Of a stretch of DNA of 64,000 nt, positions 3,589 to 60,287 are shown piece by piece; the stretch's first letter is position 1, and every line of letters begins with the position of its first letter. The notes beneath the pieces were generated by a model, which made no database searches, was not told the DNA's origin, and saw nothing but the letters and a program-made list of their open reading frames with translations. A program made the position numbers and the translations under genes. The stretch is from the IMG/VR virus record IMGVR_UViG_3300045988_154277; one strand, given 5' to 3'. The stretch is from a virus.

Positions 3589-3596
3589 TACATATC

Positions 3597-3634
3597 TAAC
3601 ACTAGAGTGGCAACAACACCACTCTAGTGTTAGA
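3597..3634. terminator. bidirectional hairpin terminator
   Basis: Perfect inverted repeat TAACACTAGAGTGG-N10-CCACTCTAGTGTTA between convergent genes. Confidence 0.5.
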
Positions 3635-3640
3635 TGTTTA

Positions 3641-7437: not shown

Positions 7438-9069
7438 TTGGAGTCGAATGAGTCCAACATATCAGCGTTGTACGTCCCATCCTTCATCACAGATGAGGAT
7501 GGGGTACAGTATCCTGTGAAATCTGTTGGTTTGAAAGCGTTCGCGGGTAATCCGAACCTTGTCAAAATCTATTTTGGAGAAGGTATCGAAGAGCTTCGTG
7601 AACAAGTATGTTACCACTGCTCTAACTTGGAGTCGGTATCACTTCCGTCTACACTACGTTATATGTGGAATGCGTTTCAAGAGTGTGGGAAGATAACTAC
7701 GTTGGAGTTACCAGCTAATCTGGAATACCTCGGATCAAGTTGGATATATTCGATGGTAGGACTTACTGGGGTGATCAACATCCCAGCTAAGGTAACTGAG
7801 ATCAATATAACAGCCATCTCGTCAGAGCATATAACCGGGTTTAATGTAGCAGCTGCTAATCCCAACTACAAATCCGTCGATGGGTGCTTGTTCACCAAAG
7901 ATGGAACAACGTTGTGTTTAGTACCGTCATCCGCTGATTGGGTGACTGAATATGTTACACCAGATGGTGTAACAACGATTTGGACAAGTGCATTTTCTAC
8001 CAACCGCAGTCTTGTCACATTGACACTTAGCGAAGGGGTTGTATCTGCACCAAGCGCAATCGGTAGCTGCACAAAGTTGATACAGTTGAATCTACCGTCT
8101 ACTCTAACAACCAACCCATTCCAATCCCTCGCCAATATGTACAGCTTATCTGCGATTACCGTATCGGAGAATAGTCAGACATTTGCGGCGGTGGATGGAG
8201 TGATGTTCACCAAAGATCTGAATACATTGATCAAGTATCCTCCTAAGAAAGAAGCAGCATATATCGTACCTTCTACTACCAAAATACTTGGTAGTGGTGC
8301 GTTCTCTTTAGGTAGGATGCAGTCTCTCACCTTGAATGAAGGATTACTTGCTATTTATTCAGATGCATTACGGTCTGTGATCAAAGTTCCAAGTGATAGT
8401 ACACTGAATGTGTTGCGTATTCCGAACACGGTCAACTCTATCGCCAACAACGGATTGTTTGAAGCGTTCTGGTCTGGCTTTGAAGTAGACAACACACATC
8501 CTTATTATTCCACGGATGGTTCTGTTCTTTATAACAAAAATAAGACTGCAGCTCTTGTGTATACCTGTGATACCTCCGCTCCTCACGATCGAGAAGTAAC
8601 ACTTCCATCTACCGTTGAGGAGATCGGTTTAGGTTTCTCACATAACAACAGTCCACTTGTGAAGTTAGATCTGAGTCGAACCAAAGTAACGGTTCTTCCG
8701 CAGTTCACTTGGTTCTCAACAGCGAACGACGGTAATGAACGAACTCTTTTGCTTCCAAACACGTTAACAAGGATCAATTATAACAGCATCCGAATCGTAA
8801 GTGCAAGAACTCTCACGATACCGGCTGGTGTAACTACCATTGAATCTGCTGCGATAGGGTTGGATAATGCAGAGGAGATCGTGTTCGAAGATCCAGGGCA
8901 AGCTGGATCTGATGGAGTTAAGGTGTTCAACCTGACAACCTTCAACAGCATCTTCTGGACTATATCTCCAAGGTGTGTTGTTCGTGGGTATAAAGGATCT
9001 GAAGACAACTTGTCTCCAGCTGAACAAATCGCCAAGCAGTATACATTGCTGTTTGAACCACTCGGTTAA
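7438..9069 (+). CDS. BspA-type leucine-rich-repeat protein, putative receptor-binding protein
   Basis: A 20-25-aa repeat with conserved L/I/V/N/F spacing runs through the protein (for example LPSTLRYMWNAFQECGKITTLELPANLEYLG). The frame is open from 7315 but the first start codon is TTG at 7438. There is no ATG for about 80 codons and no SD. Confidence 0.45.
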   Translation: MESNESNISALYVPSFITDEDGVQYPVKSVGLKAFAGNPNLVKIYFGEGIEELREQVCYHCSNLESVSLPSTLRYMWNAFQECGKITTLELPANLEYLGSSWIYSMVGLTGVINIPAKVTEINITAISSEHITGFNVAAANPNYKSVDGCLFTKDGTTLCLVPSSADWVTEYVTPDGVTTIWTSAFSTNRSLVTLTLSEGVVSAPSAIGSCTKLIQLNLPSTLTTNPFQSLANMYSLSAITVSENSQTFAAVDGVMFTKDLNTLIKYPPKKEAAYIVPSTTKILGSGAFSLGRMQSLTLNEGLLAIYSDALRSVIKVPSDSTLNVLRIPNTVNSIANNGLFEAFWSGFEVDNTHPYYSTDGSVLYNKNKTAALVYTCDTSAPHDREVTLPSTVEEIGLGFSHNNSPLVKLDLSRTKVTVLPQFTWFSTANDGNERTLLLPNTLTRINYNSIRIVSARTLTIPAGVTTIESAAIGLDNAEEIVFEDPGQAGSDGVKVFNLTTFNSIFWTISPRCVVRGYKGSEDNLSPAEQIAKQYTLLFEPLG

Positions 9070-10884: not shown

Positions 10885-12537
10885 CTAGTGTATCGTAGAC
10901 CAGACTTTGCCGATCGCACCGATGTGATTGTGCTCCACAGCCATCTGACGGGTTGTGGTCGTACCGTAGATGTCGAAACTGACACCCATGTATTTCACAA
11001 TGTTGATCATATCGGTAACCAACGCTTTATCGATCTCCTGATCCTCGGTCAGGTACGAAGTGATATCAGCCAATACCGTGTCGATATCATCCACCATCTT
11101 GACAAGGCTATTCGTCGCTGCCAGATATTTCTCCATATCCAGAAGAGAGAGTCTGACATCTTTAAACTCCTTCATCGTCTTGTAAACGGACATGAACTTC
11201 ACATCCATCGGAGTTTTTTGTTCTGTGAAGACTTTATCCACAGAGCCTTTCAGAGAGTTCAAACTGGTCTCTCTCTGTTTGACAAGGTTCACCATGGGAA
11301 CCAGAGTGCTCTTATAATCTTCACTCCGCATCAACTTCCTTCTGAAATCGATCAGAGCAGCCAGAACACCCTGTCCATACGCCTGGATATCCAGCACTGT
11401 ATAGACTTGTTCCAGACTCATACAAGCGTTCTGGTAGGTACCTTTCATACCGCTTGGGATGGGGATATCTAGGTTCGTTACCTGAGTGATCGGAATGCTC
11501 TCGGCTTTCAGACACATCGTCGTATGCGATTCGTAGTAATACCGCATCTCAGAACGCTTCAGGTCTTTGTAGAATTTGAAGATATTGGTCTTGAATGTAT
11601 TGCCGATCTTGAGGAACACATCGGTCACACCGATGAAGATCTTCAGAAGACCGGTTCCGATCCCTTCGGTAGATGTGGTATCCAGAGTACGGAGGTAATT
11701 GTGATAGACTTCCAGCTTACGAAGGTCCTGATAAAGAGCATCACTGTTCCAAGGAATGAACGGATACTTGGATGCACAGACACGGAGGATCTCTTCTGAT
11801 TTCTCGGACTTATCATCCTTGTCATCTTCTTCATCTTCAGGATCCTCTTCCTCAGAGTCATCTTTATCTTTGTCTTTCTTGGACTTAGACTTCTTGTCTG
11901 ACTTATCATCTTCGTCGTCAGACTCTTCATCATCGTCCTCTTTGTCCTCATCGGAATCTGTATCATCATCTTCGTCAGAATCATCCTTATCATCAGAATC
12001 ATCATCATCGTCTTCTGACTCATCCTCCGGGTCAGGCTCTTCGTCTTCTTCATCCTCAGAGTCCTCATCCTTCTTGGATTTGGCGTTGCGGTAGATATAT
12101 CGTTCTTCAGACTTCTCTTCTTCGTCTTCCGGCTCATCGTCAGAAGTGTCTTCACCACCAACAAGATCCCATACTTTATCGACGAACGCTTTGATTTCAC
12201 GACCATCCTTCTTGATCCAGTCGTATTCAACATCGATCTTGATATCAGTATCGTACTTGTCTTTCAGTTCCTTCTCGATCTTCTTGAGAACATCAGACCA
12301 GTCGTCTTTTGTAAGGCTTTCCAGAGTGGAGAAATTGTGTTCTTCCTTTACAAAATCAGGACCATCGGAATAGTCGTTCAATAGTTTACAGATCATCCGA
12401 GAGATGACGTAACGGTTGAGCTCTTTGTCATCCTCTTCCTTCTCATCGGAACTCTCTTTCTCATTCCGAAGGTGCGTTGGTCGGATCGGTCGAAGACCTT
12501 CCGTCCCTAACGCAGACAAGCTAAACTTGGAAATCAT
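10885..12537 (-). CDS. highly acidic protein with about 150-aa poly-D/E/S low-complexity region
   Basis: AAGGAA SD. The central region has runs such as DEDDDTDSDEDKEDDDEESDDEDDKSDKKSKSKKDKDKDDSEEEDPEDEEDDKDD. The flanking sequence looks globular. Confidence 0.55.
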   Translation of the reverse strand: MISKFSLSALGTEGLRPIRPTHLRNEKESSDEKEEDDKELNRYVISRMICKLLNDYSDGPDFVKEEHNFSTLESLTKDDWSDVLKKIEKELKDKYDTDIKIDVEYDWIKKDGREIKAFVDKVWDLVGGEDTSDDEPEDEEEKSEERYIYRNAKSKKDEDSEDEEDEEPDPEDESEDDDDDSDDKDDSDEDDDTDSDEDKEDDDEESDDEDDKSDKKSKSKKDKDKDDSEEEDPEDEEDDKDDKSEKSEEILRVCASKYPFIPWNSDALYQDLRKLEVYHNYLRTLDTTSTEGIGTGLLKIFIGVTDVFLKIGNTFKTNIFKFYKDLKRSEMRYYYESHTTMCLKAESIPITQVTNLDIPIPSGMKGTYQNACMSLEQVYTVLDIQAYGQGVLAALIDFRRKLMRSEDYKSTLVPMVNLVKQRETSLNSLKGSVDKVFTEQKTPMDVKFMSVYKTMKEFKDVRLSLLDMEKYLAATNSLVKMVDDIDTVLADITSYLTEDQEIDKALVTDMINIVKYMGVSFDIYGTTTTRQMAVEHNHIGAIGKVWSTIH

Positions 12538-12598
12538 AGTTGTATTCCTTTTGTTATGTTGTTTCTATTCGAGTCATACGATGGCTCAAGATACGATC

Positions 12599-12633
12599 TA
12601 TAGGTAGGGTAGTTACACTACCCTACCTATAGA
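12599..12633. terminator. hairpin terminator
   Basis: CTATAGGTAGGGTAGTTACACTACCCTACCTATAG. Confidence 0.45.
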
Positions 12634-12640
12634 TCACGTG

Positions 12641-14323
12641 TTAAGCGAATGGATCGTACGTGTCTTCCTCTGCAGGAGGTTGTTCTGCTTCTACAACCGT
12701 TGGTTCTTTCGGTTCCTCTTCTTTGGGGAGAGGTTCCTGAGGAACAGGTTGTTCTGATTGAGGTTCCGTTACATTCTGGAAAAGCGCCAACCCTCCAGCA
12801 TCCGTCACCTCATTGTTGTTGTCGCTGTAGATATCGGGCACACTAGTGTCCTTATCCAAGTAGATATCATCCATGATACCTAGAACAGGACCCATGAACC
12901 GATACGCACAGTACCGATCCTCCTTCGGCGGCGGCGGCTCATCACGGTGTTTACTCCAACATAACGTCAAATAAGGCACTTCGTTCATGTTCCTTTCGAT
13001 ATACATGAAGATCAATCCAGTCAACTCCCTTCGGAATCCTTTACAGTCACCGAGATGGATCGCACCGTAGGATTTGACAACGTTGGCTTGACCACTTGCG
13101 TTTAACTCCTCAGCACGACTATCCAACTGAAGACCATGCAGCATCAGACAGTTGTTCCTCTGTCCGTAGTTGTACATCTTCTGCATCAACTTCTGAAGAC
13201 GTTTGGCTGGATTGTCACTATCCTCATCTACTCTCATCAGTGTGATGTAGTCGATGACCGTTGCAACAACCTCGTAGCCTTTCCTTTTCAGTTCTTCCAT
13301 CTCTTTCACGAAGTCTGAGTAACCGAAGTTCTCATCCTTACGCATCATGATGAACTTGATCCCGTTGCTGTTGAAATACCGAGCAACTTGCTCAGCCATC
13401 TCGCGCATCGGCATGTCTTTGGGAGGCTCTGCTCTCATCGCATTAACATAAGCCGACACCACCATACTGTTGGCGTTCTCAGGAACTTCGTTCTCCAAGG
13501 AGATCAATACCACACATGGGATCATACCAGGTTGTACATCTACTTTCCCGTAGACCGTACACCATCTGGCACAGTTCATCAACATCTGAGATTTATAGTT
13601 GTGAGAGGATGCTGCGAATGCCCACGACTCTCCTCTCTTGAATCCTCTGTCTTCTCCCAACATCCGGTTCAATGCCTTCAACCCAGTTGGGAATACATTG
13701 GATTTCCTCTTGTTCCTGTAGTTATCCAGAGACTTCATCAGAGCATTCGCATCTGTCATATCGACGTTGTCGATCGTCTCTGACATCCCGAATCCACCCT
13801 CTGCTGACTTCACCAGATCTCTTGCATATTCCGCCACATCATTCAAGATGATGTCGTTTGTCATGTCATCCGTTGGGTTGAATTGACTTCCACGGATCTG
13901 CATCTTCTGGATGATTCCCATGGACTTCGCCATCGCAACCCAGTTGCTCATCCTGTGAAGCAACCGAGTGACGCGCCGATCACTGATCTCTTCACTGTTT
14001 AGAAGAAGACTGCTTAACTGCTCCACGATCACGGGATCTTTCTGAGCCAGATCACTCTTCTTCAGTTTCACCACGATACGATTGATCTCTGCTTTCTTGC
14101 TGAGATCCGCATCTCTGGTGACGATATCCTGGATGATCTCGAAGAACACATCCAGATCTTTGTTCAGGATCTCTGGCTTCTTCTTCTTCGTAGCCATGTA
14201 GATATCCAAGATCGAGCCCAATGTCTCCTTGGAGTTGTCTGATTTAGAAAATGCTGCCAGACATACAGCATCCAACATGAAATCCGTATTAATCGCTATC
14301 ACGAGTTCACCTACCTCTTCCAA
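12641..14323 (-). CDS. DnaB-family helicase homolog with degenerate Walker A
   Basis: VVATVIDYITLM matches the DnaB H2 motif LIVIDYLQLM. LQLDSRAEEL...RELTGLIFMYIER matches SQLNRSLEQR...DADLIMFIYR. The P-loop position reads AASSHNYKSQ instead of AARPxMGKT. Pro/Glu-rich C-terminal tail. The start is uncertain: TTG at 14323 or GTG at about 14302 after GAGGTAGG. Confidence 0.55.
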   Translation of the reverse strand: MEEVGELVIAINTDFMLDAVCLAAFSKSDNSKETLGSILDIYMATKKKKPEILNKDLDVFFEIIQDIVTRDADLSKKAEINRIVVKLKKSDLAQKDPVIVEQLSSLLLNSEEISDRRVTRLLHRMSNWVAMAKSMGIIQKMQIRGSQFNPTDDMTNDIILNDVAEYARDLVKSAEGGFGMSETIDNVDMTDANALMKSLDNYRNKRKSNVFPTGLKALNRMLGEDRGFKRGESWAFAASSHNYKSQMLMNCARWCTVYGKVDVQPGMIPCVVLISLENEVPENANSMVVSAYVNAMRAEPPKDMPMREMAEQVARYFNSNGIKFIMMRKDENFGYSDFVKEMEELKRKGYEVVATVIDYITLMRVDEDSDNPAKRLQKLMQKMYNYGQRNNCLMLHGLQLDSRAEELNASGQANVVKSYGAIHLGDCKGFRRELTGLIFMYIERNMNEVPYLTLCWSKHRDEPPPPKEDRYCAYRFMGPVLGIMDDIYLDKDTSVPDIYSDNNNEVTDAGGLALFQNVTEPQSEQPVPQEPLPKEEEPKEPTVVEAEQPPAEEDTYDPFA

Positions 14324-16149: not shown

Positions 16150-18387
16150 ATGTCTGCTATTGACAAATACCTGAAGCAGCTTGAAACTGCGTTCGCCAAT
16201 ACTGGCAAAGCTGGTGATCTGGTTGGTATCGGTCGCTCGACGTACGACGCTGTTGGGAAATACCTTACCACCCGCAACATGATCAAGCGTGGCGCCTATG
16301 AACAGATGTCCATCAGCAACGAATCCATGAGCTTCGAAACTGCGATGAACGCGCAGGGCGTCGATGGTCTGAAAGACCTCGTTGAGAGTTGCGGCGTTCC
16401 GCAGGCTTACGTCAAGGACTGCTGCAAGACCATCCTGAACATCATGAACCGTTGCTCGCAGGGTGCGGCCGCTGCTTGGCAGCAGCAGAACCTCCGTGCG
16501 GATCACACGGCCAACGGTCAGGCGGAAGCTCGTCCGCTCTCCTCGATCTACAGCTCCGACGTTGCTGGCATTCTGAACAGCACCGCTGTGGCCGGTCAGG
16601 AAGCGTTCGGTACCAACGTCGATATGGCGGTTCCGGATATGAAGGTTGCCATCACGGTTGCCATCATGGACTTCCATGTCCGTCTGATCCCCCGCGTTAT
16701 GCCGACCCGTTCCACGACTCAGCCGAACGTCTCCTACACCAAGGAGTGGCTGGAAGTTTACGATCTCACCGGCAACACCAAAGACAGCCAGCGTCTCGTT
16801 GACCTGTACGCCGATCCGTCCTTCGCTCGCAATGAGCTGAAACTGATCGAAGTCAACCCGGCCAACGATCCGGAACAGAAGTTCATCAACGGTGATGGTA
16901 CGCTCAAGTTCGGCCCGAAGGCCAACATCCTCGAGCTCTCCACCCGTGAGGACAAATACGGTTACAGCCATATCAACCGCACCGACCTGATCGCGGACAA
17001 CGTCCAGATCAAGTTCGTTCGTGTCGCTCTGACCTTCAACGGTGGCGAAGCGGAATACTTCGACTGCGAAGTTCCGATCAGCAAGAACCGTCTGACCCGT
17101 ATGGTCAACGCCAACGACTCTGCGATGCGCAATGCAGACATCAAGTTCCGTACCTACCTCCGCAAGAGTGCGATGATGGCGAACGGCTCTGCGTCCGGCA
17201 TCCTCTCGAACCTGAGCGACAGCGAAGCGTTCGTCCTTGACTTCAACGTCAAGCCGAGCATCTCTCTGAAGTGGGGTATCGCGGACTGTCTTGCGGACGT
17301 CAGCGTCAGCGTTCGTCACGATATCGACAACGCTCAACTCAGCGGATTCGCGACCTCTCTGATGAGCAGCGGCGCTCTGAGCCTGATCGGTTATGAACTC
17401 GACGCTCGTTTCTCGGAAGAGAACCTGCGCAAGACCTCCATCGCGGTTATGACCCACCGTGTTCCGTTCTCGTTCGATATCCCGATCGGTCGGAACTATG
17501 TGTTCGATTACGCGATCGGTCAGGTCAATGCGGAAGAGAACGCCACCAACCTCACCAAGGTCATCGGTCTCGGTCAGGACAAGGTTGCGCTCGAACTCGG
17601 CATCCGTACCATCGAAGATGTCTACGATCGCATCCGTGCGGTCAGCCCGAACCCGGTCGATCGTCCCGAATATGTCGGCACCAACTATGTTGCTGGCGAC
17701 AAGGTTCGCCCGTCCATCTTCATCGGCGATCTGGATCTGACCAATCTGGAAACCATCCGTGATGCTGACCGTGCTGGCGACATCAAGCAGAAGGCCATCT
17801 CCATGCTGACCGCTGCTACCAGCCGTATCCTTCAGGAGTCCTTCCTGCAGCAGCAGCTCGGTGGTTCGACCACGGCTACCTTCAAGGGTATCACCAGCAT
17901 CGAGATCCTCGGCAACGTCATCGGTATGCCGCACATCCACGACCATATGTCCAAGGATGATGGTCGCAACGTCGGTGACGGTGTGGAATACGTTCTCGTT
18001 CTGCCGAACGGCGTGAAGATCGAGTTCGTGACCTCCACCTTCGACAGCATGCGCGACAAGATCGTCATGTGGCCGACCATCCCGAACAACACCGAAAGTG
18101 AACTGCACTTCGCTCACAACTGGGACTATGGGTGCATGGTTGCCCATTACACCCCGAGTGGTGAAGCGGCTCACCATCGTCTGTTCGGCAACATCCGTGA
18201 ACTGCCGATCGTCGTCAACCCGCTGGGTCTCATCATCCAGGTCAAGGGTATCGAGCTGGCGAACGGTATCGCTCTCGATGGCGTCGTCCGTCCGACCTTC
18301 AACGTCAACGTGGAAGGCTCGGTTGTCACGACTGTCAACGGAACGATCACCACGGCTCCGGAACAGGGTGGCACTGAAGAGCCCTGA
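16150..18387 (+). CDS. major capsid protein candidate (abundant structural protein)
   Basis: 745 aa with AAGGA SD. Codon usage is sharply GC3-rich (CTG, CGT, GGC, ACC, AAC) unlike its neighbours, as expected for a very highly expressed gene. The size matches phiKZ-type major capsid proteins. The antisense 828-aa ORF is a shadow. Confidence 0.4.
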   Translation: MSAIDKYLKQLETAFANTGKAGDLVGIGRSTYDAVGKYLTTRNMIKRGAYEQMSISNESMSFETAMNAQGVDGLKDLVESCGVPQAYVKDCCKTILNIMNRCSQGAAAAWQQQNLRADHTANGQAEARPLSSIYSSDVAGILNSTAVAGQEAFGTNVDMAVPDMKVAITVAIMDFHVRLIPRVMPTRSTTQPNVSYTKEWLEVYDLTGNTKDSQRLVDLYADPSFARNELKLIEVNPANDPEQKFINGDGTLKFGPKANILELSTREDKYGYSHINRTDLIADNVQIKFVRVALTFNGGEAEYFDCEVPISKNRLTRMVNANDSAMRNADIKFRTYLRKSAMMANGSASGILSNLSDSEAFVLDFNVKPSISLKWGIADCLADVSVSVRHDIDNAQLSGFATSLMSSGALSLIGYELDARFSEENLRKTSIAVMTHRVPFSFDIPIGRNYVFDYAIGQVNAEENATNLTKVIGLGQDKVALELGIRTIEDVYDRIRAVSPNPVDRPEYVGTNYVAGDKVRPSIFIGDLDLTNLETIRDADRAGDIKQKAISMLTAATSRILQESFLQQQLGGSTTATFKGITSIEILGNVIGMPHIHDHMSKDDGRNVGDGVEYVLVLPNGVKIEFVTSTFDSMRDKIVMWPTIPNNTESELHFAHNWDYGCMVAHYTPSGEAAHHRLFGNIRELPIVVNPLGLIIQVKGIELANGIALDGVVRPTFNVNVEGSVVTTVNGTITTAPEQGGTEEP

Positions 18388-23705: not shown

Positions 23706-26282
23706 ATGTTTATCACACGTTTTGAAATACACTTATACAAACCACTCCTACACAACAACATCAAACATGTAGTTGTGAATGATCTAACTCAGCAGACGGT
23801 ATTGGTTGCACCGAATGGATTCGGGAAGAGTTCGATCATGAGAGAGTTGACTCCTTACCCTGCTTGTCGCTCTGACTATGAGAAGCAAGGTAAGAAGATC
23901 ATCGAGATCCAACATGAGAAATCTTACTACATCCTTACATCGGATTTCAGTAAGATCAATGGAGCACATAGCTTCATCAAAGATGATGAAGAACTGAACC
24001 AGAGTGGCACCACAGAGGTGCAGGAGAGCTTGGTTGCACAACATTTCGGATACACTCAGGTGATCGACAAACTGTTATCCGGTGAGTATCAGGTCTGCTC
24101 TATGAGTGTAGCTGCTCGTAAGGAGTTGATCTACAGTACTTACCCAACATCATTAACGTTCATCTTGGATAAGTACCAAGCTTTGAAATCCAAGATCAGA
24201 ACATGCAGCAATCAGTTGAAGTTGCTGAATGAGAGAAAACTCAAGTTAACCGATCTTCTGTTGAAAGACGAAACACTTCAGTACTTTGAACAGTATCGGA
24301 AAGATCTCAACCGTGCACTCAGTGTTTTGGATCGTGAGATCTATGCGATGAACAAAACGTCTGGTGATATCAAGAACCGAATTACGACGTTAAAGATGGA
24401 ACGTGGGTCTGAAGCTGAGGTATCATTAGAGACGATCCTTCAGGAGTGTAAGAACATCTCCATGGAGATGTTCGAACTGAAGTTGAACCATGAGGTAGAT
24501 CTTGTTGTCCCTGCACAACTGGATCGGCTGATCGGGAAGTTAAGTGCACAAGCTGAGACACATCATGAGAAGAAGAACACTTTAACAGAACGAGGAACTC
24601 AGTTGAGTTCTGAGATCGATAAGATCCGTACTTCTCTTCAGAACGACACGGCTACGGCGATCCAGGAGTGTAAACGGTTGATCGAAGTCCAAGAGGAGAT
24701 CGTCCGGCAGAACACGATGGACGACGATACACCTGTTGTTCCATTGGAAGAGGCTCTGAAGTTGGAAGAGAACATAGATAAGATCCGAGAGGATCTTCAA
24801 TTCTTACAGGGATATCTTCCACTGATCACGCATAAAGAGTACAACGATCTTCTAGCCAAACGCGCACTACTGGAAGGCAGGATCCATCAGGTAGAACCGG
24901 AAGTATCACGGTTGGAGAATGTGATCGGTGAAGTCCAGAAGAAGATCCACTCTTTAAAGGACAAACACTCGTATCCATCAGACTGCAAACGCACTTGTAA
25001 GTTGAGAGAGAACTTGGAATCCGTTCTTCTATCTTACCAATTGGAGTTGAAAGATTACGAGACTTCTTATCAACGGGATCGTAAGATCCTACAGGAAGCA
25101 AAACAGCAGTATGACGAAGCAAATACAAAGGTTGAAGGGCAGAGAGCAGCGAGGCTTATTTTGCTCAAACTGGAGACACTTTTCACCCGCAAAACCTGGG
25201 GTCTTTTTGTGTGTTCTGATCTTGATCCATTAGACGCGATCAATCAGGACGTTACGAAAATCATCAACCGTTGTCTGAAGGTTGTTCAGAAAGCCAAAGC
25301 ACATGCTAAAGTCAAAGAGGCAGAGGACAAACTAACAGGACTTCGTGCGAAGTTGTTAGGTCTCCAAGCATCCGATCAACCTGTGAAAGAGTATCTCACG
25401 AAATCTCTGGTTGAGAAAGAGTATGAGTTGAATCAGATCGGGAAACAACTCTCCTTACTGGATCAGAGATTATCGTCTACAGAACTCGCTCTTCAGGTTT
25501 ACAAAGATCATCTGAATCTCCATAATCGTATCACTCACCTCAATGGTGTGTATCATCTATGGCAACAGCTCTATGTGCATGAAGAGGAGTTGCGATGCCT
25601 GGACGATATGGTGTGGTATCTTCAAGATGTGAAGAATCAGATCAACGAGAAGTTGAGAGAGTTGGAGACGATCGTCAAAGAACAGTCCGGATATCTGACC
25701 CGATTGAAAGAAGAGATCGAACCATCGATCCAGGAGATCTCAGGTAAGATGAAGAAGTTGGTCGCTGTAGCGGAACAACTATCTCCTGTATCAGGGATCC
25801 CTTATCGGTATACCGTAAGATACGTCAACACAGTTTTGCAGTTGGCGAATATGTTTATCCGTCAGGTGTGGAACTACGACATCGAACTGGCTTATTTCGA
25901 TGAGAACAAACAGAATGATTTCGACTTCAACTTCCGGTTGTTGATCAACCACAACAGTGAAGTGAAAGATATCAAACTCTGTTCGAAGAGCCAGAAGTCG
26001 ATCATCAATCTGGTGATGCGGTTGGCGATCTGCATCTATCGTGGATACATCCATCAGTATCCTCTGAAACTGGATGAGATCGATGATGGTTGCAGTCCGA
26101 TCCATCAGGATCGGTTGACTTCGTTCCTTGTGGAGTTTCTGAACAAAAAGAATATCCTACAAGCGTTCATCGTCAACCAATCGGTTGCTGTAAGCAGTAG
26201 CTTCACGGATGCTGGTATGATCTTGTTGTCGGAAGATGAGATCGTTCCGGAACACTGTGTTGTAAAGTCCAAAGTCAATTGA
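23706..26282 (+). CDS. Rad50/SbcC-family ATPase
   Basis: AAAGAGG SD before ATG 23706. Walker A VLVAPNGFGKSS, long coiled-coil middle, signature-like SKSQKS, Walker B LKLDEIDDG. Confidence 0.65.
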   Translation: MFITRFEIHLYKPLLHNNIKHVVVNDLTQQTVLVAPNGFGKSSIMRELTPYPACRSDYEKQGKKIIEIQHEKSYYILTSDFSKINGAHSFIKDDEELNQSGTTEVQESLVAQHFGYTQVIDKLLSGEYQVCSMSVAARKELIYSTYPTSLTFILDKYQALKSKIRTCSNQLKLLNERKLKLTDLLLKDETLQYFEQYRKDLNRALSVLDREIYAMNKTSGDIKNRITTLKMERGSEAEVSLETILQECKNISMEMFELKLNHEVDLVVPAQLDRLIGKLSAQAETHHEKKNTLTERGTQLSSEIDKIRTSLQNDTATAIQECKRLIEVQEEIVRQNTMDDDTPVVPLEEALKLEENIDKIREDLQFLQGYLPLITHKEYNDLLAKRALLEGRIHQVEPEVSRLENVIGEVQKKIHSLKDKHSYPSDCKRTCKLRENLESVLLSYQLELKDYETSYQRDRKILQEAKQQYDEANTKVEGQRAARLILLKLETLFTRKTWGLFVCSDLDPLDAINQDVTKIINRCLKVVQKAKAHAKVKEAEDKLTGLRAKLLGLQASDQPVKEYLTKSLVEKEYELNQIGKQLSLLDQRLSSTELALQVYKDHLNLHNRITHLNGVYHLWQQLYVHEEELRCLDDMVWYLQDVKNQINEKLRELETIVKEQSGYLTRLKEEIEPSIQEISGKMKKLVAVAEQLSPVSGIPYRYTVRYVNTVLQLANMFIRQVWNYDIELAYFDENKQNDFDFNFRLLINHNSEVKDIKLCSKSQKSIINLVMRLAICIYRGYIHQYPLKLDEIDDGCSPIHQDRLTSFLVEFLNKKNILQAFIVNQSVAVSSSFTDAGMILLSEDEIVPEHCVVKSKVN

Positions 26283-26284
26283 TA

Positions 26285-26320
26285 TCTAGAGGTAGTGGAG
26301 GATCCTCCACTACCTCTAGA
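26285..26320. terminator. bidirectional hairpin terminator
   Basis: TCTAGAGGTAGTGGAGGATCCTCCACTACCTCTAGA between convergent genes. Confidence 0.5.
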
Positions 26321-26326
26321 ACTCTA

Positions 26327-27190
26327 TCACATCTTAGTGATCGTAACATCGTTGTTGTTGGTGGATACACGGAACTTCTTATCGGTCCCTCTGATCGCAA
26401 TGACATTTTGAGATTCGTTGATCAACTCGTAACTTCGTTTTACGAAGGGGTGTTCTGAGTTGTTCAAGATATACTCGATCACTTGATAGTGGTACTCGTC
26501 AAGTTTCTTATACTTGATATACTCGTTAAAATCTGAGTTGATGGGATGAACTTTCCCTGAGATGTGATCCGTTTCGAATGAGTGACTGACGATCATCTGG
26601 CATTTCGTCTCAGCGTAGATCACCATCTGAGTACTGCGGTCTACGAAGTTCACAACATCGTAGCAGACCGTCTTCGGGTAGTCGATCGCTCCTGTTACCG
26701 TGAACAGTTGGTTGTTCAGACTGAAATCGAAGTTCTTCCTCTGTGCATCAGTCACAGCAGTACGGATCAATGTGACATTGTACTCCTGTTCATCTATCTG
26801 TGCGATCGTTAAACAAGAGATGTAACTCTTACGACAAGCGTTCACCTGGATGTCGATGATCATACTGTTGTTGTACAGGTACATCTCATTATAGTTCTCC
26901 AAATCAACGTACAGTCGGATGCTGTCATTGTTTCGTTCGATCGCATACGTGAATGTCTTACCATGCTCCAGATCAACGATCTCCAATGATCCTGCGATAC
27001 AGACGTTAGAAAAGAAGGTATAGTTGAAATGGTACCGTTCTCCTCCGACGATTACATCGTACTTCATGTACTTGTCTTTAATAGTTTTCTGAAGTACAGT
27101 GATGTTGTACTCATCGTCAAAACGTTTGTGTCGAGGCATGATGTTGTTCACGACGGTAGCGTTCGCATACCACATGAATTTAAGGTCCAT
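26327..27190 (-). CDS. hypothetical protein
   Basis: GGAGG SD before ATG at 27190. Divergent from the next gene. Confidence 0.4.
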   Translation of the reverse strand: MDLKFMWYANATVVNNIMPRHKRFDDEYNITVLQKTIKDKYMKYDVIVGGERYHFNYTFFSNVCIAGSLEIVDLEHGKTFTYAIERNNDSIRLYVDLENYNEMYLYNNSMIIDIQVNACRKSYISCLTIAQIDEQEYNVTLIRTAVTDAQRKNFDFSLNNQLFTVTGAIDYPKTVCYDVVNFVDRSTQMVIYAETKCQMIVSHSFETDHISGKVHPINSDFNEYIKYKKLDEYHYQVIEYILNNSEHPFVKRSYELINESQNVIAIRGTDKKFRVSTNNNDVTITKM

Positions 27191-41117: not shown

Positions 41118-41197
41118 TGGTCCGTGTGGAGGGATTCGAACCCCCGACAACTCCTGCTCCCAAAGCAGGCGCGCTAACCAGACTACGCTACACACGG
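41118..41197 (-). tRNA. tRNA-Pro (UGG), CCA encoded
   Basis: Acceptor CCGTGTG/CACACGG, anticodon arm CCTGC-TTTGGGA-GCAGG, T-loop TTCGAAT, 3' ACCA. Confidence 0.7.
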
Positions 41198-41418: not shown

Positions 41419-41489
41419 TTAGTCCCACCAGGATTCGAACCTAGACTAAAAGATCCAAACTCTTCTGTGCTACCATTACACCATGAGAC
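41419..41489 (-). tRNA. tRNA-Gln (UUG); alternative register gives UGG
   Basis: Acceptor AGTCTCA/TGGGACT with a G-U pair, D-arm containing GG, anticodon arm GAAGA-GTTTGGA-TCTTT, T-loop TTCGAAT. Confidence 0.5.
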
Positions 41490-41505
41490 TACGAAGTTGT
41501 ATAGG

Positions 41506-41639: not shown

Positions 41640-42506
41640 ATGGTGGAGGTGGCGGGTTATTCTCCCGCGTCTTACCTTACTTCAGATCAGTTTCGTTCAC
41701 AAGCTTAGTTTCGCTTATATTAGTCACACAGTCGATGTACGAAACTTGAGGAATCTCAGAGTGCTACTCTGTATCATTCTAACTGTACTGTGTCAAGTCA
41801 CTTCATGTGGGCGCTACTCCACTTCATGGATGCTCCCAGTAGTGTACCATCCTGGGCTACATCGACAACCAATCTGTGCGCATATTCTAACGATTCACGA
41901 TTGGTGAACCTCATTAGAACCCGAACCAAAGAAACGAGAGCGAATCATCGAGTCTTTGAAATTGCACTACTAGTCTCGTTATCGGAGTCCGAGACGTTCG
42001 TGGCCATCACGCAGCAGCGAGAAGGGCTTCTTCAGTGTTGTTGACACTTATTGTTTTGATCAGCTTTTATACAGGCCAACTGATCAACCTGTGCTTGCAA
42101 CTTAATCTTCCACAAAGCAATCGAAATAAAATCACCCCCGTGAAAAGAGGAACTGTGATCGGTGATGGGCACCGATCTTCACCCGGACTTCGTCAACAGG
42201 TTGGGGCAGTTCCAAGCTCCCATCGAGGTGATATAGACACCTCTTACAACAGCGAACATAACTCACAAAGATCACCACTCCTCAGAGTGTTACGAGGAAT
42301 CGGGATTTACCGGGATCCGGACGATGTATTCAACTATCTGATCTTGAGAGAGGAATCAAACTCTTGATCAACTCATGGACTAACCCTGCATCTACAGTGC
42401 TCCGTTAGATCCATCATCGTTTACTTTGCATCGATTACCCTGTCACTCGCATCCTGTGTGTCCACTGGAGTATACATTAGGTAGACTCAGTAGATTATTA
42501 CTGAGA

Positions 42507-44467: not shown

Positions 44468-45571
44468 TTAGTTCTTGGATTCCATCACTCCGAGCGGGTC
44501 GACTTCCGCTTCTTTGAGGATGGTATCGAGTGTCTCCTTGGGAAGATCGTTGGCTTTGTCGACGTAGACTGCGGCATCCGTCTTGAATCCGGTCACTTCG
44601 ATTTCGACGTTTTCACGGAACTCATCCGATACCGCTCTGTACACGACAGAGGAGACCACAGTCAGATCACCGGTCTGGATATCCAGTTTGCCGGTGCAGA
44701 AGATGGTCAGCTTGACATCCTCTGTGAAGTACTTGCCCCAGAAATTAAGCACATCTTCACCAGAGCGCGGCTGCTTATCAAGTGACTGGAGGAGACCTTT
44801 CGCTGTAGTCTCGATCATGAACGCAACCGTGCGCTCACTTGCGTTCTTGCTGATCCCGTACACGAACTGATTGTGTTTGTCGTCATTCACTTTCAGAGTG
44901 AACAACGAGCAGAAATCAGGTTCCTTATTGGCTTCTTTCTGTTTGTCAATGATCCGAATATGGAGATCTGTGATCTTTGCACGTTCCACGATCTTGTCAC
45001 CATTCCAATCGTGGTAGTATTCCGGAGCGTGATTCAAGAGATTGAGTTTCTCCTTGATCGGCAACCACTCAGTCGTCAGAGTCTGCGTTCCGAAGTCTTT
45101 GGTCTCTTTCTTCTTGGCAGCAGTATGCTCCGTATACTGGATCAGTCGCAGGAACTTGGCAGCATCCTCATTCACGATATCTTTCCCATCTTTGAAATGA
45201 CGAGTGATCGTGAGAGCTTCTTTGTTGAATGTATAAGAAATCTCAAGGTCTGAAAGTATCAGTTCGTCCTTGGTGATATCCGTAGTGAATGTAACCGGGA
45301 TTTCTCTCTTGTTCGTTCCATTCTGCTGCTTCAGGAGTTTGATAGCAGTATCCAGTGTTCCTTTACACAGTTGATGATAGTATTCATACACTCTGAGCGG
45401 GATACCGCTTACCACAACCGTGGTAAGGACCTGAGTGATCTCCTTCTTGAATGCAGCGAAATCACAGGGTTTCCCAAGAGCAACAAAGTTATACGAGCTG
45501 AGAGAGCTCTGCTTCTTCTCCTTTTTGGGATTGGTGTTGACGGGATGGTACTTGCTTTTCTTCTTAGGCAT
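44468..45571 (-). CDS. hypothetical protein with basic N-terminus
   Basis: 367-aa ORF. Confidence 0.4.
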   Translation of the reverse strand: MPKKKSKYHPVNTNPKKEKKQSSLSSYNFVALGKPCDFAAFKKEITQVLTTVVVSGIPLRVYEYYHQLCKGTLDTAIKLLKQQNGTNKREIPVTFTTDITKDELILSDLEISYTFNKEALTITRHFKDGKDIVNEDAAKFLRLIQYTEHTAAKKKETKDFGTQTLTTEWLPIKEKLNLLNHAPEYYHDWNGDKIVERAKITDLHIRIIDKQKEANKEPDFCSLFTLKVNDDKHNQFVYGISKNASERTVAFMIETTAKGLLQSLDKQPRSGEDVLNFWGKYFTEDVKLTIFCTGKLDIQTGDLTVVSSVVYRAVSDEFRENVEIEVTGFKTDAAVYVDKANDLPKETLDTILKEAEVDPLGVMESKN

Positions 45572-47943: not shown

Positions 47944-48987
47944 CTAAAGTTTAAGATCTGATTGGATCATGTTCGCAAGATAACGGATCTGTGGATGTGC
48001 ATCAGATGCTGTTCTCAGTTTGAGGAAATGATCCCATGCTTCTTTAGTTCCTGTCACACAGAACTCACTCTTCAGAGATTGGGGTAGTACAGAACGAGCT
48101 TCCTGAGGAGACAACTTGCGTTCGATCATTTCATTGTACACACGTTCACACGCCTCCATGTGTTGTAACCACAGCCGCATGGTGTGGAAAGTAGCCATCA
48201 ACTCAGAAACTCCCTTAAAGGAAACTCCGTTCATGCAAATCAAAGATACATCACCTTTCTCTTCGACACATCCTCCCTTTTTCAAGAGGTTGTATAGGAA
48301 CTGCTCATCACTGTCGTCTTCCGTAGGAGACCAAAGAAACGGGATCGGAAGACAAAAGGTCACACCCTTTTTATTGTAGTTACAATAGCGGGTAGACTCC
48401 ACTGTGAACGACATGTTGTATCGATGACGTGTCCACTCTGCCATCACACCACGGTCTGTGACCACATGGTAGGTTTGGTATTGCATATCTTCGCTGATAC
48501 GCAACATTCCATCTTTGGGTTCCAAAGGTGTGTCTTCTTTGATCAAAGATTCAAAGATCGGTGGGAACAATTCTGCAAGGAAATGTTTCACATACCGGAA
48601 GACATACCAATAGGGCAATGGTGAAGATAACCAATCAAGATAAGCTCTGAAGTTACCAGTGATCGTGTACCATTCACTTTTATCATCCGACGTATGACTC
48701 AAGAACACATGTGGTTGAAGATACTCAGAAAGAACTTCAAAGTCTGTCTTAGTGAAAGAAGAACGTTTGATATCCAGAGTGATCCTGGCATGTTCCAACA
48801 CACTCCAATGACCACGCTGTACGATCCCTTTGATAAATCTGATGTAACTATCATCCGTGATCTTGTCTTCAGAACGATACGCGATCCTTCCACATCGCTC
48901 TATCTTTTTCATCAGAGCGATGTTTAACGGTATATCCTGATTGTTCGTAATATCAACACTGGTAACGCTCGGTGCTACTAATTCCAT
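47944..48987 (-). CDS. thyX: flavin-dependent thymidylate synthase
   Basis: ThyX signature RHRxxSxxxxSxR reads TRHRYNMSFTVESTRY. Confidence 0.65.
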   Translation of the reverse strand: MELVAPSVTSVDITNNQDIPLNIALMKKIERCGRIAYRSEDKITDDSYIRFIKGIVQRGHWSVLEHARITLDIKRSSFTKTDFEVLSEYLQPHVFLSHTSDDKSEWYTITGNFRAYLDWLSSPLPYWYVFRYVKHFLAELFPPIFESLIKEDTPLEPKDGMLRISEDMQYQTYHVVTDRGVMAEWTRHRYNMSFTVESTRYCNYNKKGVTFCLPIPFLWSPTEDDSDEQFLYNLLKKGGCVEEKGDVSLICMNGVSFKGVSELMATFHTMRLWLQHMEACERVYNEMIERKLSPQEARSVLPQSLKSEFCVTGTKEAWDHFLKLRTASDAHPQIRYLANMIQSDLKL

Positions 48988-49045
48988 AATGGACTCTCCT
49001 TGTAGTTGGTAGTTGTGTAGGATGTGGATTCGACATAGAAAGATA

Positions 49046-49080
49046 CTCTACTCTGGGAAGGATAACTTCCCAGAGTAGAG
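49046..49080. terminator. hairpin between the IS right end and thyX
   Basis: CTCTACTCTGGGAAGGATAACTTCCCAGAGTAGAG. Confidence 0.45.
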
Positions 49081-49089
49081 AGCCACAGA

Positions 49090-49300
49090 AAGGTATAAAT
49101 GAAAAGTCCTGGTTCCGTTTAGTAATGGAGTGACCGTATAGGCAGGCCCGAAAAGAGGCTATGTGATACGGTCAGTATCAGATCTCATTCACACGGTTTC
49201 CTTACGCTGAGCTGATACGTTTCTGGTGAACTACTCCTTACGGAGCTTCCTCGTATTACCGAGTACATCGACTTACGTCGATGGCCTGTTCCAGGCATTT
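49090..49300 (-). ncRNA. candidate omega/reRNA of TnpB (overlaps tnpB 3' end and right end)
   Basis: Stems GACCGTAT...ATACGGTC and GTATCAG...CTGATAC plus TTAC-loop hairpins lie immediately 3' of tnpB. This is the position expected for the guide RNA of TnpB systems. Confidence 0.3.
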
Positions 49301-50437
49301 ACGTGTGTTATTATCCCACCACATGTACGGATGGATATTGACTATAGATACAGGACCTTTGTACAATCCACTCGATTGTGCTCTTCCTAAGTGCAAGATG
49401 TTCAACGCAGCATTGATGTCTCGGTCTATCTCAAGACCACAATGTTCACATGTGAATGTTCTTACTTTTAGGGAGAGCTTCTCAGTGTGTTTTTCACCAC
49501 AGTACGCACAGGTCTGTGAAGTAAACATCGGATTCACAGGAACAAGATGATTTACCTTGTACTCTAGCATACTGATGAACTTACCAAGTTGTTGATTCCG
49601 TATCTCACGATTACGTCCAGTTGCTTTGGATTCAGACATCCTCTTAACCTTTAAGTCCTCTACGTACACTGTATCGTAACGACTGGACAGATCTTTAGAG
49701 ATCTTGTGAAGTTGGTCATTCGTTTTACGACTCTTCACTCTATACAGCTGTTTGATGACTTTAGTGAGATGTCTGTATCTATTTGATCTACGTTTGTGGT
49801 TGGTGTCCCTCCTTGCTTTTAGTTTATCTATTTGTTTATCATACCACTTCTGATGATTCGGTCCTCTGATCACTTGTTGATCAGATGTTGTTACCAAGTT
49901 AGCCGTTCCAAGATCGATACCCACATCAGTTGGCTGTCTAACTTTTACAGGGTTGTAATCTGTAGTGATGCTGACATACCAGTGATCTGAATAACAGATG
50001 GATATCATTTTAATAGCACCTTGGATAGGTCTATGTAGCACAATTGGTATTTCACCATATGCTTTGGTGATTAGCTTACGACCTCTAATCGAATATCCAT
50101 TTTGTGGATATGTGATGTTGAAGAAATTAGAACAACTTCTAAAACTAGGCGGATGGATCACTACCTTTTTGAAGAACGACTGGTATGAGTTATGTACTCT
50201 AATAGGTACTTGTTGTAACACTTGTGAGTGTATCTCGTACAACGTAGGATCCTGTCTCTTCAGTTCAACCAATTTAGAGTTGAGTCGATATTGGTTCAGA
50301 TACGATTTGTTGTTCGTATACTCAGTTTGTTCTGCTTGGATGAACTGGTTGTATATCCAGTTCAATCTGCAAGAGTGGTTCCATAGTTTCTTAACTTGCT
50401 GGTTAGAAGGTCGTATGCGAAACTTATAAGTTCGCAT
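49256..50437 (-). CDS. tnpB: TnpB (OrfB) RuvC-like RNA-guided endonuclease family
   Basis: GGAG SD. RuvC-I VGIDLGTANLV. Zinc finger CAYCG...CEHCG. RuvC-III DRDINAALNIL. 393 aa. Confidence 0.75.
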   Translation of the reverse strand: MRTYKFRIRPSNQQVKKLWNHSCRLNWIYNQFIQAEQTEYTNNKSYLNQYRLNSKLVELKRQDPTLYEIHSQVLQQVPIRVHNSYQSFFKKVVIHPPSFRSCSNFFNITYPQNGYSIRGRKLITKAYGEIPIVLHRPIQGAIKMISICYSDHWYVSITTDYNPVKVRQPTDVGIDLGTANLVTTSDQQVIRGPNHQKWYDKQIDKLKARRDTNHKRRSNRYRHLTKVIKQLYRVKSRKTNDQLHKISKDLSSRYDTVYVEDLKVKRMSESKATGRNREIRNQQLGKFISMLEYKVNHLVPVNPMFTSQTCAYCGEKHTEKLSLKVRTFTCEHCGLEIDRDINAALNILHLGRAQSSGLYKGPVSIVNIHPYMWWDNNTRKCLEQAIDVSRCTR

Positions 50438-50604
50438 GTAATTACTCCAACCTTTGGTTGTTGATGTAGTTATGTAACGTATCTATGGATACGTTACATG
50501 CTGTTACTAGAAAATAAGACGGTTGATCTTAAGATACGTGATCCGTAGTCTACATCTCTCCAATATGTAGAATCTAGAGCATTAAGATCCTTGCTATAGC
50601 AGGC

Positions 50605-51138
50605 TTAATTTGCCTTAACTTTGTCAATGACACGATTCAACTGATCTTCACTCGCCACGATGAACACATTCATCTGGATCGGTGCGTAAATCACCTTACC
50701 TTCACGAACAGCTTCAGACAACCACATCTCTCTGATGGGATTAGAATCTGTTGGCATCTGTTTTGGTTGTGGAACAATTTCAGGAACGATCGGTTCCGGT
50801 TTTACTTCCACTTTAGGTTCCTCTGTAACAACAGGTGTGGTAGTGATCGTTGGCTGTACAACAGATGTTGTTGGTTTTGCAACAGACTTGGCTGTACGAA
50901 CAAGTGACGTCTTCACTGAGTGAGGGATTTCACGTCCTTCACGAATGCTCTGCTCGATGATACCGATCTGAGTCCGCATCATTTCATCTTTGTATTTTTT
51001 CGTGTCTTTCCCTCTGCAAATGTCATTGCAGTACTTCTTGTCTCTATCAGCGTACTCGAAGGTTGCATTGCACGTGGCACAACGCTTAGGGTGAGCGTAA
51101 TAGAGGGCTTTCTTCTGTTTGAGAGTGAGTTCCGACAT
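50605..51138 (-). CDS. zinc-ribbon protein with Pro/Thr-rich linker
   Basis: CATCN...CNDIC near the N-terminus. Confidence 0.4.
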   Translation of the reverse strand: MSELTLKQKKALYYAHPKRCATCNATFEYADRDKKYCNDICRGKDTKKYKDEMMRTQIGIIEQSIREGREIPHSVKTSLVRTAKSVAKPTTSVVQPTITTTPVVTEEPKVEVKPEPIVPEIVPQPKQMPTDSNPIREMWLSEAVREGKVIYAPIQMNVFIVASEDQLNRVIDKVKAN

Positions 51139-51253
51139 AATGTAAAATCCTTTCGTTTTGGGTTGGTTTCATAAGATATTATCATCCGCAGTAATTTTTT
51201 ACAGAGAATATATCTAGGTAAGTAGGGAGAACCTACTTACCTAGATAACACGG

Positions 51254-60123: not shown

Positions 60124-60208
60124 TTGGTAGGCGATAAGGGACTCGAACCCTTACGTCTTACGACACTGGATCCTAAATCCAGAGCGTCTACCAATTCCGC
60201 CAATCGCC
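60124..60208 (-). tRNA. tRNA-Leu (UAG), type II, CCA encoded
   Basis: Anticodon arm CTGGA-TTTAGGA-TCCAG, long variable arm GTCGTAAGACGT, T-arm AAGGG-TTCGAGT-CCCTT, 3' ACCA. Confidence 0.7.
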
Positions 60209-60211
60209 CAA

Positions 60212-60287
60212 ATGGAGCCCCGTGCAGGAATTGAACCCGCCTCCCAACCTTACAAGGGTTGACTTGAGCCACTCAAGCTAACGGGGC
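60212..60287 (-). tRNA. tRNA-Thr (UGU), CCA encoded
   Basis: Acceptor GCCCCGT/ACGGGGC, anticodon arm CAACC-CTTGTAA-GGTTG, T-arm GCGGG-TTCAATT-CCTGC, 3' TCCA. Confidence 0.65.

Follow-up and report, generated by a model that had tools for sequence, protein, structure and literature searches.

A 5'-truncated IS200/IS605 insertion sequence with an intact tnpB gene and a predicted omegaRNA scaffold upstream of thyX in a jumbo phage genome

Organization of the Locus

The window analyzed here, a stretch of 64,000 nt (one strand) from the virus record IMGVR_UViG_3300045988_154277 to which all coordinates refer as a whole, carries an insert of 1311 nt (49226-50536, minus strand) that is composed of a tnpA remnant, a complete tnpB gene, a putative scaffold for the TnpB guide RNA (omegaRNA) and a transposon right end (RE), and that was delimited by blastn against relatives with an empty site. 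It is flanked by the gene for a Cys-rich protein of 177 amino acids (50605-51138) with zero Pfam matches and by a conserved leader region (49036-49225, minus strand), which is followed by thyX, encoding a flavin-dependent thymidylate synthase (47944-48987, Pfam Thy1). An original prediction for this DNA had placed a TnpB element of the IS200/IS605 type between thyX and a zinc-ribbon gene. This location is borne out by the Thy1 gene and the Cys-rich gene, while the limits given then, 49030-50600, have to be replaced by those of the actual insert.

The tnpB Gene and Its Product

The tnpB gene (49256-50437, minus strand) encodes 393 amino acids and features an intact RuvC triad as well as a zinc finger. 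Three out of three Pfam domains (HTH_OrfB_IS605, OrfB_IS605 and Cas12f1-like_TNB) exceed their gathering cut-offs in this open reading frame. The triad consists of D175 (GIDLG, residue 173), E260 (YVEDL, residue 258) and D340 (DRDINAALNIL, residue 338), and the CxxC pairs of the zinc finger are located at residues 310 and 330. The profile search for TnpB thus gave a significant match, and the assignment to IS200/IS605-type TnpB, originally based on these motifs, holds. Residues 5-349 align with the structures of ISDra2 TnpB (8bf8/8h1j) with E=7.5e-26, and the protein matches TnpB structures better than those of Cas12f. No CRISPR direct-repeat array was found near 48-52 kb, which, together with the better match to TnpB structures, speaks against a type V CRISPR-Cas system with a Cas12f-like effector. 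Nor does the protein fit a nuclease-dead, TnpB-derived regulator (TldR), as D175, E260 and D340 are all kept.

The gene is preceded by a GGAG ribosome-binding site and has the same orientation as the flanking phage genes. When tnpB from the window was compared with the copies L005, L009 and L007, ratios of nonsynonymous to synonymous substitution rates (dN/dS) of 0.10-0.15 were obtained at dS values of 0.3-1.3. A ratio of about 0.1 points to purifying selection on tnpB.

Right End and omegaRNA Scaffold

The 3' end of the element is exact. It reads ...GGAAGCTCC-GTAA-GGAGTAGTTCAC, with position 49226 as the last base. The window and the copies L005/L006, L009 and L007 have the ending ...GGAAGCTCC-(loop)-GGAGTAGTTCAC in common and diverge completely from the next base onward, and the same motif followed by unrelated flanks is found in the family copies L005, L007, L009, L045, L046, L048 and L050. 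Beyond these, 28 IMG/VR sites and at least 120 sites in bacterial and archaeal genomes of GTDB show the motif, and the flanks always differ. The terminal bases of the right end, TTCAC (49226-49230, minus strand), constitute the transposon-encoded motif (TEM), since unrelated DNA directly follows GTTCAC in every copy. The element belongs to the IS605 group and, within it, to the clade with a right end finishing in GGAGTAGTTCAC and a TEM TTCAC as in ISGst2.

The right end coincides with the core of the predicted omegaRNA scaffold (49226-49298, minus strand), for which RNAalifold, pair counts and a covariance model indicate four helices, i.e., GCCTG-GAA-CAGGC, CATCGAC-GTAA-GTCGATG, CTCG-GTAATA-CGAG and GCTCC-GTAA-GGAGT. 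An alignment of the last 73-89 nt of 11 family copies showed 98% of the cells paired, as opposed to 33-46% with the partners slid, and six pairs proved compensatory (RNAalifold, pair counts). The covariance model R1 built from this alignment has a single match in the window, 49226-49298, with 84 bits, and none over 49030-49225. It recovers 40 independent loci, preselected by the terminal motif alone, over the whole model, with 94% of positions paired and 17 covarying pairs, figures that are somewhat inflated because the alignment of these loci was fitted to the model. A permissive Rfam scan of 48500-51000 and of L044 returned no omegaRNA or riboswitch family and chance matches only. A broad alignment of 27 sequences covering 240 nt upstream of the right end was too divergent for RNAalifold and was replaced by the close-family alignment and the covariance model.

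The core overlaps the final 14 codons of tnpB, and the stop codon is located in the loop of helix 3. Because the helices covary and the model matches 49226-49298 alone, the omegaRNA scaffold is predicted to overlap the 3' end of tnpB, just as in characterized TnpB systems; its 5' limit may extend to about 49400. The hairpins with TTAC loops that had been noticed on the 3' side from the outset are real and represent helices 2 and 4 of this core (GTAA on the coding strand). The guide RNA, on the other hand, stops at 49226 and does not reside in the approximately 170 nt of structured DNA downstream, where it had been sought; an omegaRNA-like structure is conserved at 49226-49298 and none was detected by the model at 49030-49225.

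Empty Sites, Target and Predicted Guide

Several relatives do not contain TnpB at this site, namely L001 (197.7 kb, thyX 96% identical), L043 from the human gut (279,059 bp, about 93-95% nucleotide identity) and the more distant L002/L044 (361 kb, thyX 64%). In blastn comparisons, L043 1-1439 corresponds to window 51975-50537 and L043 1495-7294 to window 49225-43418, and homology to both L001 and L043 starts again exactly at 49225. In turn, the window shares 50497-49226 with L005 and 50523-49226 with L007. The empty sites of L001 and L043 read ...GCATGCGTTGTTAG directly joined to CAGAAACGTATCAGCTCAGCG, with the 5' flank also written as ...GCGTTGTTAG; in other words, GTTAG borders on CAGAAACG... 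in the empty sites, and the window picks up at CAGAAACG directly after TTCAC. The siblings therefore exhibit a presence/absence polymorphism that is seamless at the right junction and lacks a target-site duplication, while the left junction is deleted. Alignment to relatives without the insertion, as originally proposed, hence yielded the right end to the base as well as the target and its adjacent motif, but not the left end (LE), which is lost. For the insertions L005, L007, L009 and L048 no empty sites were found, the intergenic DNA being too diverged or outside the compared loci.

Elements of the IS200/IS605 family insert 3' of a target motif that is not duplicated (PMC10055086), and for this reason the original target-adjacent motif (TAM) would have been (G)TTAG. 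In the four copies that bear a left end, TTA is located 18-19 nt 5' of the foot of the LE hairpin, within GTTAC, GTTAT, CTTAA and TTTAT, respectively, which suggests a TAM of the type NTTAN. In the backbone of L043, a tandem TEM-like motif, TTCACTTCAC (1461-1470), precedes the empty site by about 25-35 nt, where L001 has GTTACTTCTC; it is probably a coincidence.

The stretch of the omegaRNA that is predicted to serve as the guide, CAGAAACGTATCAGCTCAGC (49206-49225, minus strand), would be templated by the flanking phage DNA, with a length adopted from known TnpB systems. From 49225 downward, the guide region is identical to L001 7765-7794 in 30 of 30 positions and to L043 from 1495 onward, where the match continues over 39 nt and GTTAG is situated directly 5'. 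At the window's own locus the target directly follows TTCAC, which is not a TAM, and the TAM that once lay upstream has been lost. The pattern resembles that of homing endonucleases, in that target and GTTAG are intact in the TnpB-less L001 and L043 and the self allele is devoid of a TAM.

Loss of the Left End and of Most of tnpA

Next to the start of tnpB, a remnant of tnpA comprising the last 26 codons and the stop (...PSYFLVTACNVSIDTLHNYINNQRLE and stop codon; 50442-50522, minus strand) was identified by tblastn and by DNA alignment to the tnpA 3' end of L007. In tblastn, residues 108-133 of the L007 TnpA protein (Y1_Tnp) correspond to window 50522-50445 with 85% identity (E=5e-9). The early statement that TnpA is missing is accordingly approximately right, apart from these 26 codons. 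According to blastn and tblastn, a deletion junction at 50527-50537 (minus strand) joins the backbone (...CTACGGATCACG) to the interior of tnpA around codon 104-108; homology to L043, in which the upstream gene is the same, ends at 50537 and homology to tnpA begins at 50523-50527. The window lacks 55 bp of backbone (L043 1440-1494, with GTTAG) that contained the TAM, as well as the entire left end and codons 1-107 of tnpA. The LE hairpin of the family, CCCTTTCC-TTTA-GGTGAGGG, has 8 bp with a T.T mismatch and thus shares its architecture with the RE hairpin in its long form. L007, L046, L050 and the miniature L027 all possess this LE hairpin, and the window does not. As the left end is absent, the backbone is joined directly to tnpA and 55 bp with GTTAG are deleted, the window copy is best classified as a truncated derivative and not as a complete IS200/IS605 member. 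A TnpB-only element with hairpins at both ends, as once envisaged, is not what is found here; the right end alone survives.

Within the tnpA remnant lies a perfect palindrome of 12 bp with a 4-nt loop, ATGTAACGTATC-TATG-GATACGTTACAT (50472-50499). It had been noted as a subterminal hairpin on the 5' side and is indeed real, even longer than stated then, though it does not correspond to the LE hairpin. In L005 (3936-3971) the palindrome is likewise perfect and extends to 16 bp, with outer arms that differ from those in the window and are nevertheless self-complementary, and the truncation point of L005 coincides with the foot of the hairpin. Where tnpA is intact, in L007, L046 and L048, the palindrome is weak or lacking, and L009 does not have it. 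It may reflect a hairpin-mediated deletion or a selected RNA or DNA structure. The possibility that it serves as an alternative left end for TnpA was rejected, given that it is unlike the LE hairpin of the family and that no two of the three truncated copies share a break point: 26 tnpA codons are left in the window, 18 in L005 and about 8 in L009, i.e., three break points in three copies without tnpA.

A Conserved Leader Upstream of thyX

The 190 nt downstream of the element (49036-49225, minus strand) had been counted as part of the transposon. Because they are present in relatives without TnpB and because homology to the empty sites resumes at 49225, we assign them, together with their terminator, to the phage backbone, where they appear to constitute a conserved, uncharacterized leader RNA of thyX. 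Equivalents are located at L001 7765-7955, L043 1495-1690, L002 7755-7945 and L044 60-250. The leader features two hairpins, a conserved single-stranded segment and, just 5' of thyX, a strong intrinsic terminator of 15 bp (49046-49080), a layout that resembles a riboswitch or an attenuator. Folding z-scores amount to -5.2 and -5.0. Hairpin 2 is formed by GACTAAGG/CCTTAGTC in L002 versus GACCGTAT/ATACGGTC, such that 8 pairs are kept and both sides are changed at 5 of them, and two blocks of about 22 nt, AGCGTAAGGAAACCGTGT... and ACTCCAnnnnTAAACGGAACCA, are invariant. There was no match between Rfam and the leader. Scanning IMG/VR with an 18-mer and JGI metagenomes with a pattern of two blocks led to the same phage clade only; a looser pattern yielded two loci from lambdoid phages (L041 and L042), which on reading were judged to be chance matches. 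An origin of the leader as an old omegaRNA was dismissed in view of the absence of a match to the covariance model, the absence of an end of the GGAGTAGTTCAC type and the conservation of the leader in a distant relative without TnpB.

Copies of the Family in the Phage Clade

Close copies of the TnpB protein are encoded at unrelated sites in L005/L006 (93% amino acid identity), L009 (89%) and L007 (77%). Full copies with a Y1_Tnp gene directly upstream of tnpB are present in L007, L046/47 and L048/49. The sibling contig 3300045988_142450 encodes a TnpB with 89% identity and another one of 417 amino acids, and it also contains a gene-less miniature with LE hairpin, omegaRNA core and right end, all at sites other than this one; the TnpB of 417 amino acids is present on another contig of about 278 kb, too. 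A mixture of autonomous, tnpA-less and PATE-like copies has been described for ISGst elements (PMC10055086), and the family in the phage clade appears to follow this pattern. A GTDB protein-pattern scan, which detects near-identical peptides only and is therefore weak, did not reveal a bacterial or archaeal source of the element.

Gene-less, PATE-like miniatures are located at L027 8900-9124 and L043 8660-8874. They consist of a hairpin of the LE type, about 100 nt of unrelated filler and then the omegaRNA core with the right end, and they would require TnpB in trans. The L043 miniature and the window were considered as a filled/empty pair and not used for deriving the TAM, since this region is rearranged: the segment beside the tRNA-Pro genes (window 41669-42102 versus L043 8675-8913) spans 434 nt in the window and L001 versus 239 nt, including the miniature element, in L043, and a 15-nt stretch, ACAGGCCAACTGATC, is found inverted. 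In L046, a solo RE-like remnant (336-510) follows an inverted copy of itself (GTGAACTACCCC...GGGGTAGTTCAC), and the full tnpA-tnpB element on the same contig is about 3 kb away.

Phage Genome and Neighboring Genes

A metagenomic scaffold of 278,450 bp is on record as encoding exactly this TnpB protein, and a PhiKZ-type major capsid protein is encoded in the window at 16150-18387 (plus strand; Pfam PF25620 PhiKZ_MCP, E=8e-15). With the size of this source contig and the PhiKZ_MCP match, the description of the source as a jumbo phage therefore stands. A second, shorter open reading frame (44468-45571, minus strand) shows a weak, sub-threshold match to the same capsid family. Also encoded in the window are a UvsX-like recombinase, a DnaB-like helicase, a DNA polymerase, an SbcC-like protein and a large terminase. 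The ThyX protein reaches crAss-like phages at best, with about 30% identity. INPHARED DNA gave zero matches to the TnpB region in megablast and blastn searches; the phage lineage is not among the deposited phages.

Next to the insertion site, the region 50605-51165 of the window corresponds to L001 7182-7764, and identity to L001 amounts to 97% as far as window 51165. In L001 a strongly diverged allele of 194 amino acids replaces the Cys-rich 177-aa gene, with similarity recognizable in the C-terminal part only. The open reading frame of this allele extends 36 nt into the thyX leader, and the gene-sized replacement tract ends exactly at the insertion site. Elsewhere in the window there are four tRNA genes on the minus strand (41118-41197, 41419-41491 and 60125-60287), i.e., two for tRNA-Pro(TGG) about 220 nt apart as well as adjacent genes for tRNA-Leu(TAG) and tRNA-Thr(TGT). 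Near-perfect intergenic hairpins of 15-30 bp (3586-3643, 12584-12646, 26278-26327 and the one at 49046-49080 in the thyX leader) are apparently the usual terminators of the phage. The region 11800-12150 (minus strand), inside an open reading frame of 550 amino acids (10885-12537), contains a degenerate acidic repeat with 3-nt periodicity rich in Asp, Glu and Ser, and a BspA-type leucine-rich-repeat protein encoded at 7438-9069 (plus strand; Pfam LRR_5, E=1e-31) is unusual for a phage replication/structural region.

Interpretation and Alternatives

Taken as a whole, the locus is most probably occupied by a 5'-truncated IS200/IS605 insertion sequence with intact tnpB and omegaRNA scaffold that could spread or persist by cutting empty alleles. 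Comparison with the relatives suggests that a full tnpA-tnpB element would have inserted directly 3' of GTTAG, without target duplication, into the spacer that separates the gene for the Cys-rich 177-aa protein from the thyX leader in a gut jumbo phage of about 278 kb, and that a subsequent deletion would have taken a 55-bp phage segment that contained the TAM, along with the entire left end and codons 1-107 of tnpA. Going by established TnpB biology, transcription through tnpB would generate an omegaRNA with its 3' portion templated by the adjoining phage DNA, CAGAAACGTATCAGC..., and the TnpB-omegaRNA complex would cleave DNA in which CAGAAACGTATCAGC... stands beside a TAM of the NTTAN type. 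The phage's own genome would be spared, the TAM being deleted and TTCAC abutting the target, and the siblings L001 and L043 would offer a perfect site, GTTAG followed by CAGAAACGTATCAGC.... Empty alleles in co-infecting phages would then be cut, and recombinational repair would result in homing or marker exclusion. The element can probably no longer transpose via TnpA, while TnpB may retain the ability to cut the empty allele of a co-infecting phage.

Several observations weigh against such an activity. The RE hairpin in the window is shortened: its stem, closed by a GTAA loop, comprises 5 bp, where most copies have 8 bp. A sigma-70-type promoter was not found upstream of tnpB on the coding strand, although the phage lineage's own promoters may differ. 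The signal of purifying selection could largely predate the truncation. Furthermore, the TAM was deduced from five sites, which differ from one another at positions 1 and 5, and GTTAG may or may not be cleavable by this TnpB, as GstTnpB2 tolerates no single change in its TAM (PMC10055086).

A more far-reaching proposal states that a phiKZ-type gut jumbo phage keeps, under purifying selection, an end-less and TAM-less TnpB-omegaRNA unit as an RNA-guided weapon for homing or marker exclusion. We put it forward tentatively, as a possibility that is more doubtful than not. If it were true, the thyX-leader region of siblings with an empty allele would be cut, the TnpB-bearing genome would be used for repair and the rival would be converted, which would make the system an RNA-guided counterpart of T4 Seg and I-TevI that does not need TnpA.

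The copy might instead be an inert relic, a dead passenger in which tnpB is unexpressed or inactive and the open reading frame is intact merely because the truncation is recent. This is rather unlikely. It would be in line with the loss of left end, TAM and tnpA, with the shortened RE hairpin and the missing promoter match and with the decay that is common in the family, as illustrated by the RE-only remnant in L046 and the gene-less miniatures in relatives. However, 393-aa reading frames are intact in three differently truncated copies at dS values of 0.3-0.5 and dN/dS ratios of 0.10-0.15, all catalytic and zinc-binding residues as well as all omegaRNA helices are retained, and tnpB is co-oriented with the flanking phage genes and equipped with its ribosome-binding site.

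A domesticated function, in which TnpB-omegaRNA controls thyX in a TldR-like manner by binding to the leader region of this gene in the phage itself, or acts against host DNA, has very little probability. The guide does match the 5' edge of the conserved structured leader directly upstream of thyX, the element is immobile yet conserved, and domesticated TnpB regulators are known (PMC10705468). Nevertheless, the RuvC triad is intact, unlike in TldR, the self locus has TTCAC and no TAM beside the target with the upstream TAM deleted, thyX is expressed in relatives without the element, and the occurrence of the family at many unrelated sites implies that the guide is simply whatever flanks the right end.

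Finally, a complete and potentially mobile TnpB-only element of about 49030-50600, with the palindrome as its LE hairpin and the omegaRNA in the roughly 170 nt downstream, is refuted by the empty-site comparison and retains next to no probability even though the hairpins and the structured region do exist and TnpB-only is the commonest form of tnpB (PMC10055086), because the downstream region is kept in TnpB-less relatives with homology resuming at 49225, the omegaRNA model of the family matches 49226-49298 alone, the palindrome sits in the tnpA remnant and is unlike the LE hairpin of the family, and each of three TnpB-only copies is broken off at a different point on the left.

With regard to the significance of the truncated, tnpB-bearing copy, TnpB is common in phages, huge phages included (PMC12607003), and is found in 425 INPHARED records; moreover, "transposon non-restorative homing" into co-infected phages has already been listed in a review (PMC13565253) and the corresponding TnpB mechanism has been demonstrated in bacteria by Meers et al. 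(PMC10055086). The presence of TnpB in a jumbo phage is therefore not surprising in itself, and we are dealing with an element of known kind whose anatomy is corrected here, as is the annotation of the structured RNA downstream, now an uncharacterized conserved thyX leader. The value of the system lies in its being a natural test case: sibling gut phages of about 278 kb differ by presence or absence of the element, the empty allele is a perfect match to the predicted guide, and neither a TAM nor the ability to transpose is left in the occupied allele, so that an inheritance bias driven by TnpB would be separated from transposition driven by TnpA. An experimental separation of the two in phages was not found in the searched literature.

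Comparison with Known Systems

TnpB from the window resembles ISDra2 TnpB from Deinococcus radiodurans (PDB 8bf8, 8ex9, 8h1j) in domain order, with a full-length match, in the D-E-D RuvC triad and the zinc finger and in the 3'-end-derived guide RNA, which is predicted here. It differs by low sequence identity, and the window has no match to an Rfam or ISDra2-type RNA. The TAM of ISDra2 is TTGAT. The full-length relatives of the window copy share with IS608 from Helicobacter pylori, the prototype for Y1 TnpA, imperfect subterminal LE and RE hairpins with 8-bp stems and a T.T mismatch, and the family likewise inserts 3' of TTAN, about 18-19 nt from the LE hairpin and without target duplication. 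The window copy itself, unlike IS608, possesses neither left end nor tnpA and is therefore beyond the reach of the IS608 transposition pathway.

The homing endonucleases of T-even phages (SegF, SegB and I-TevI in td) offer a parallel for the arrangement: a nuclease gene is inserted between conserved phage genes, beside thymidylate synthase, is polymorphic among siblings and has its target intact only in siblings without the nuclease gene. In co-infection, such an arrangement gives homing or marker exclusion (reviewed in PMC13565253). In contrast to the protein-based recognition by these enzymes, recognition by TnpB would be RNA-guided, and the likeness, drawn here from the genes alone, is one of working mode and not of family.

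Another close counterpart is ISGst2 from Geobacillus stearothermophilus with its TnpB2 and omegaRNA (Meers et al., PMC10055086), a likeness judged from ends, RNA position and copy types. In contrast to ISGst2, the window copy resides in a phage genome and not in a bacterial chromosome, its RE hairpin is shortened, and it has lost left end and TAM, whereas the tnpA-less copies in G. stearothermophilus keep both ends and can be mobilized in trans. On the other hand, both have the TEM TTCAC and a TAM of the T-T-A type (TTTAT in ISGst2; PMC10055086), the omegaRNA of ISGst2 overlaps the 3' end of tnpB as predicted for the window copy, and autonomous, tnpA-less and PATE-like miniature copies occur together in one genome, as they do in the family of the phage clade. 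The window copy would also share with ISGst2 the cutting of empty sites, which is predicted to bias inheritance in favor of the occupied allele.

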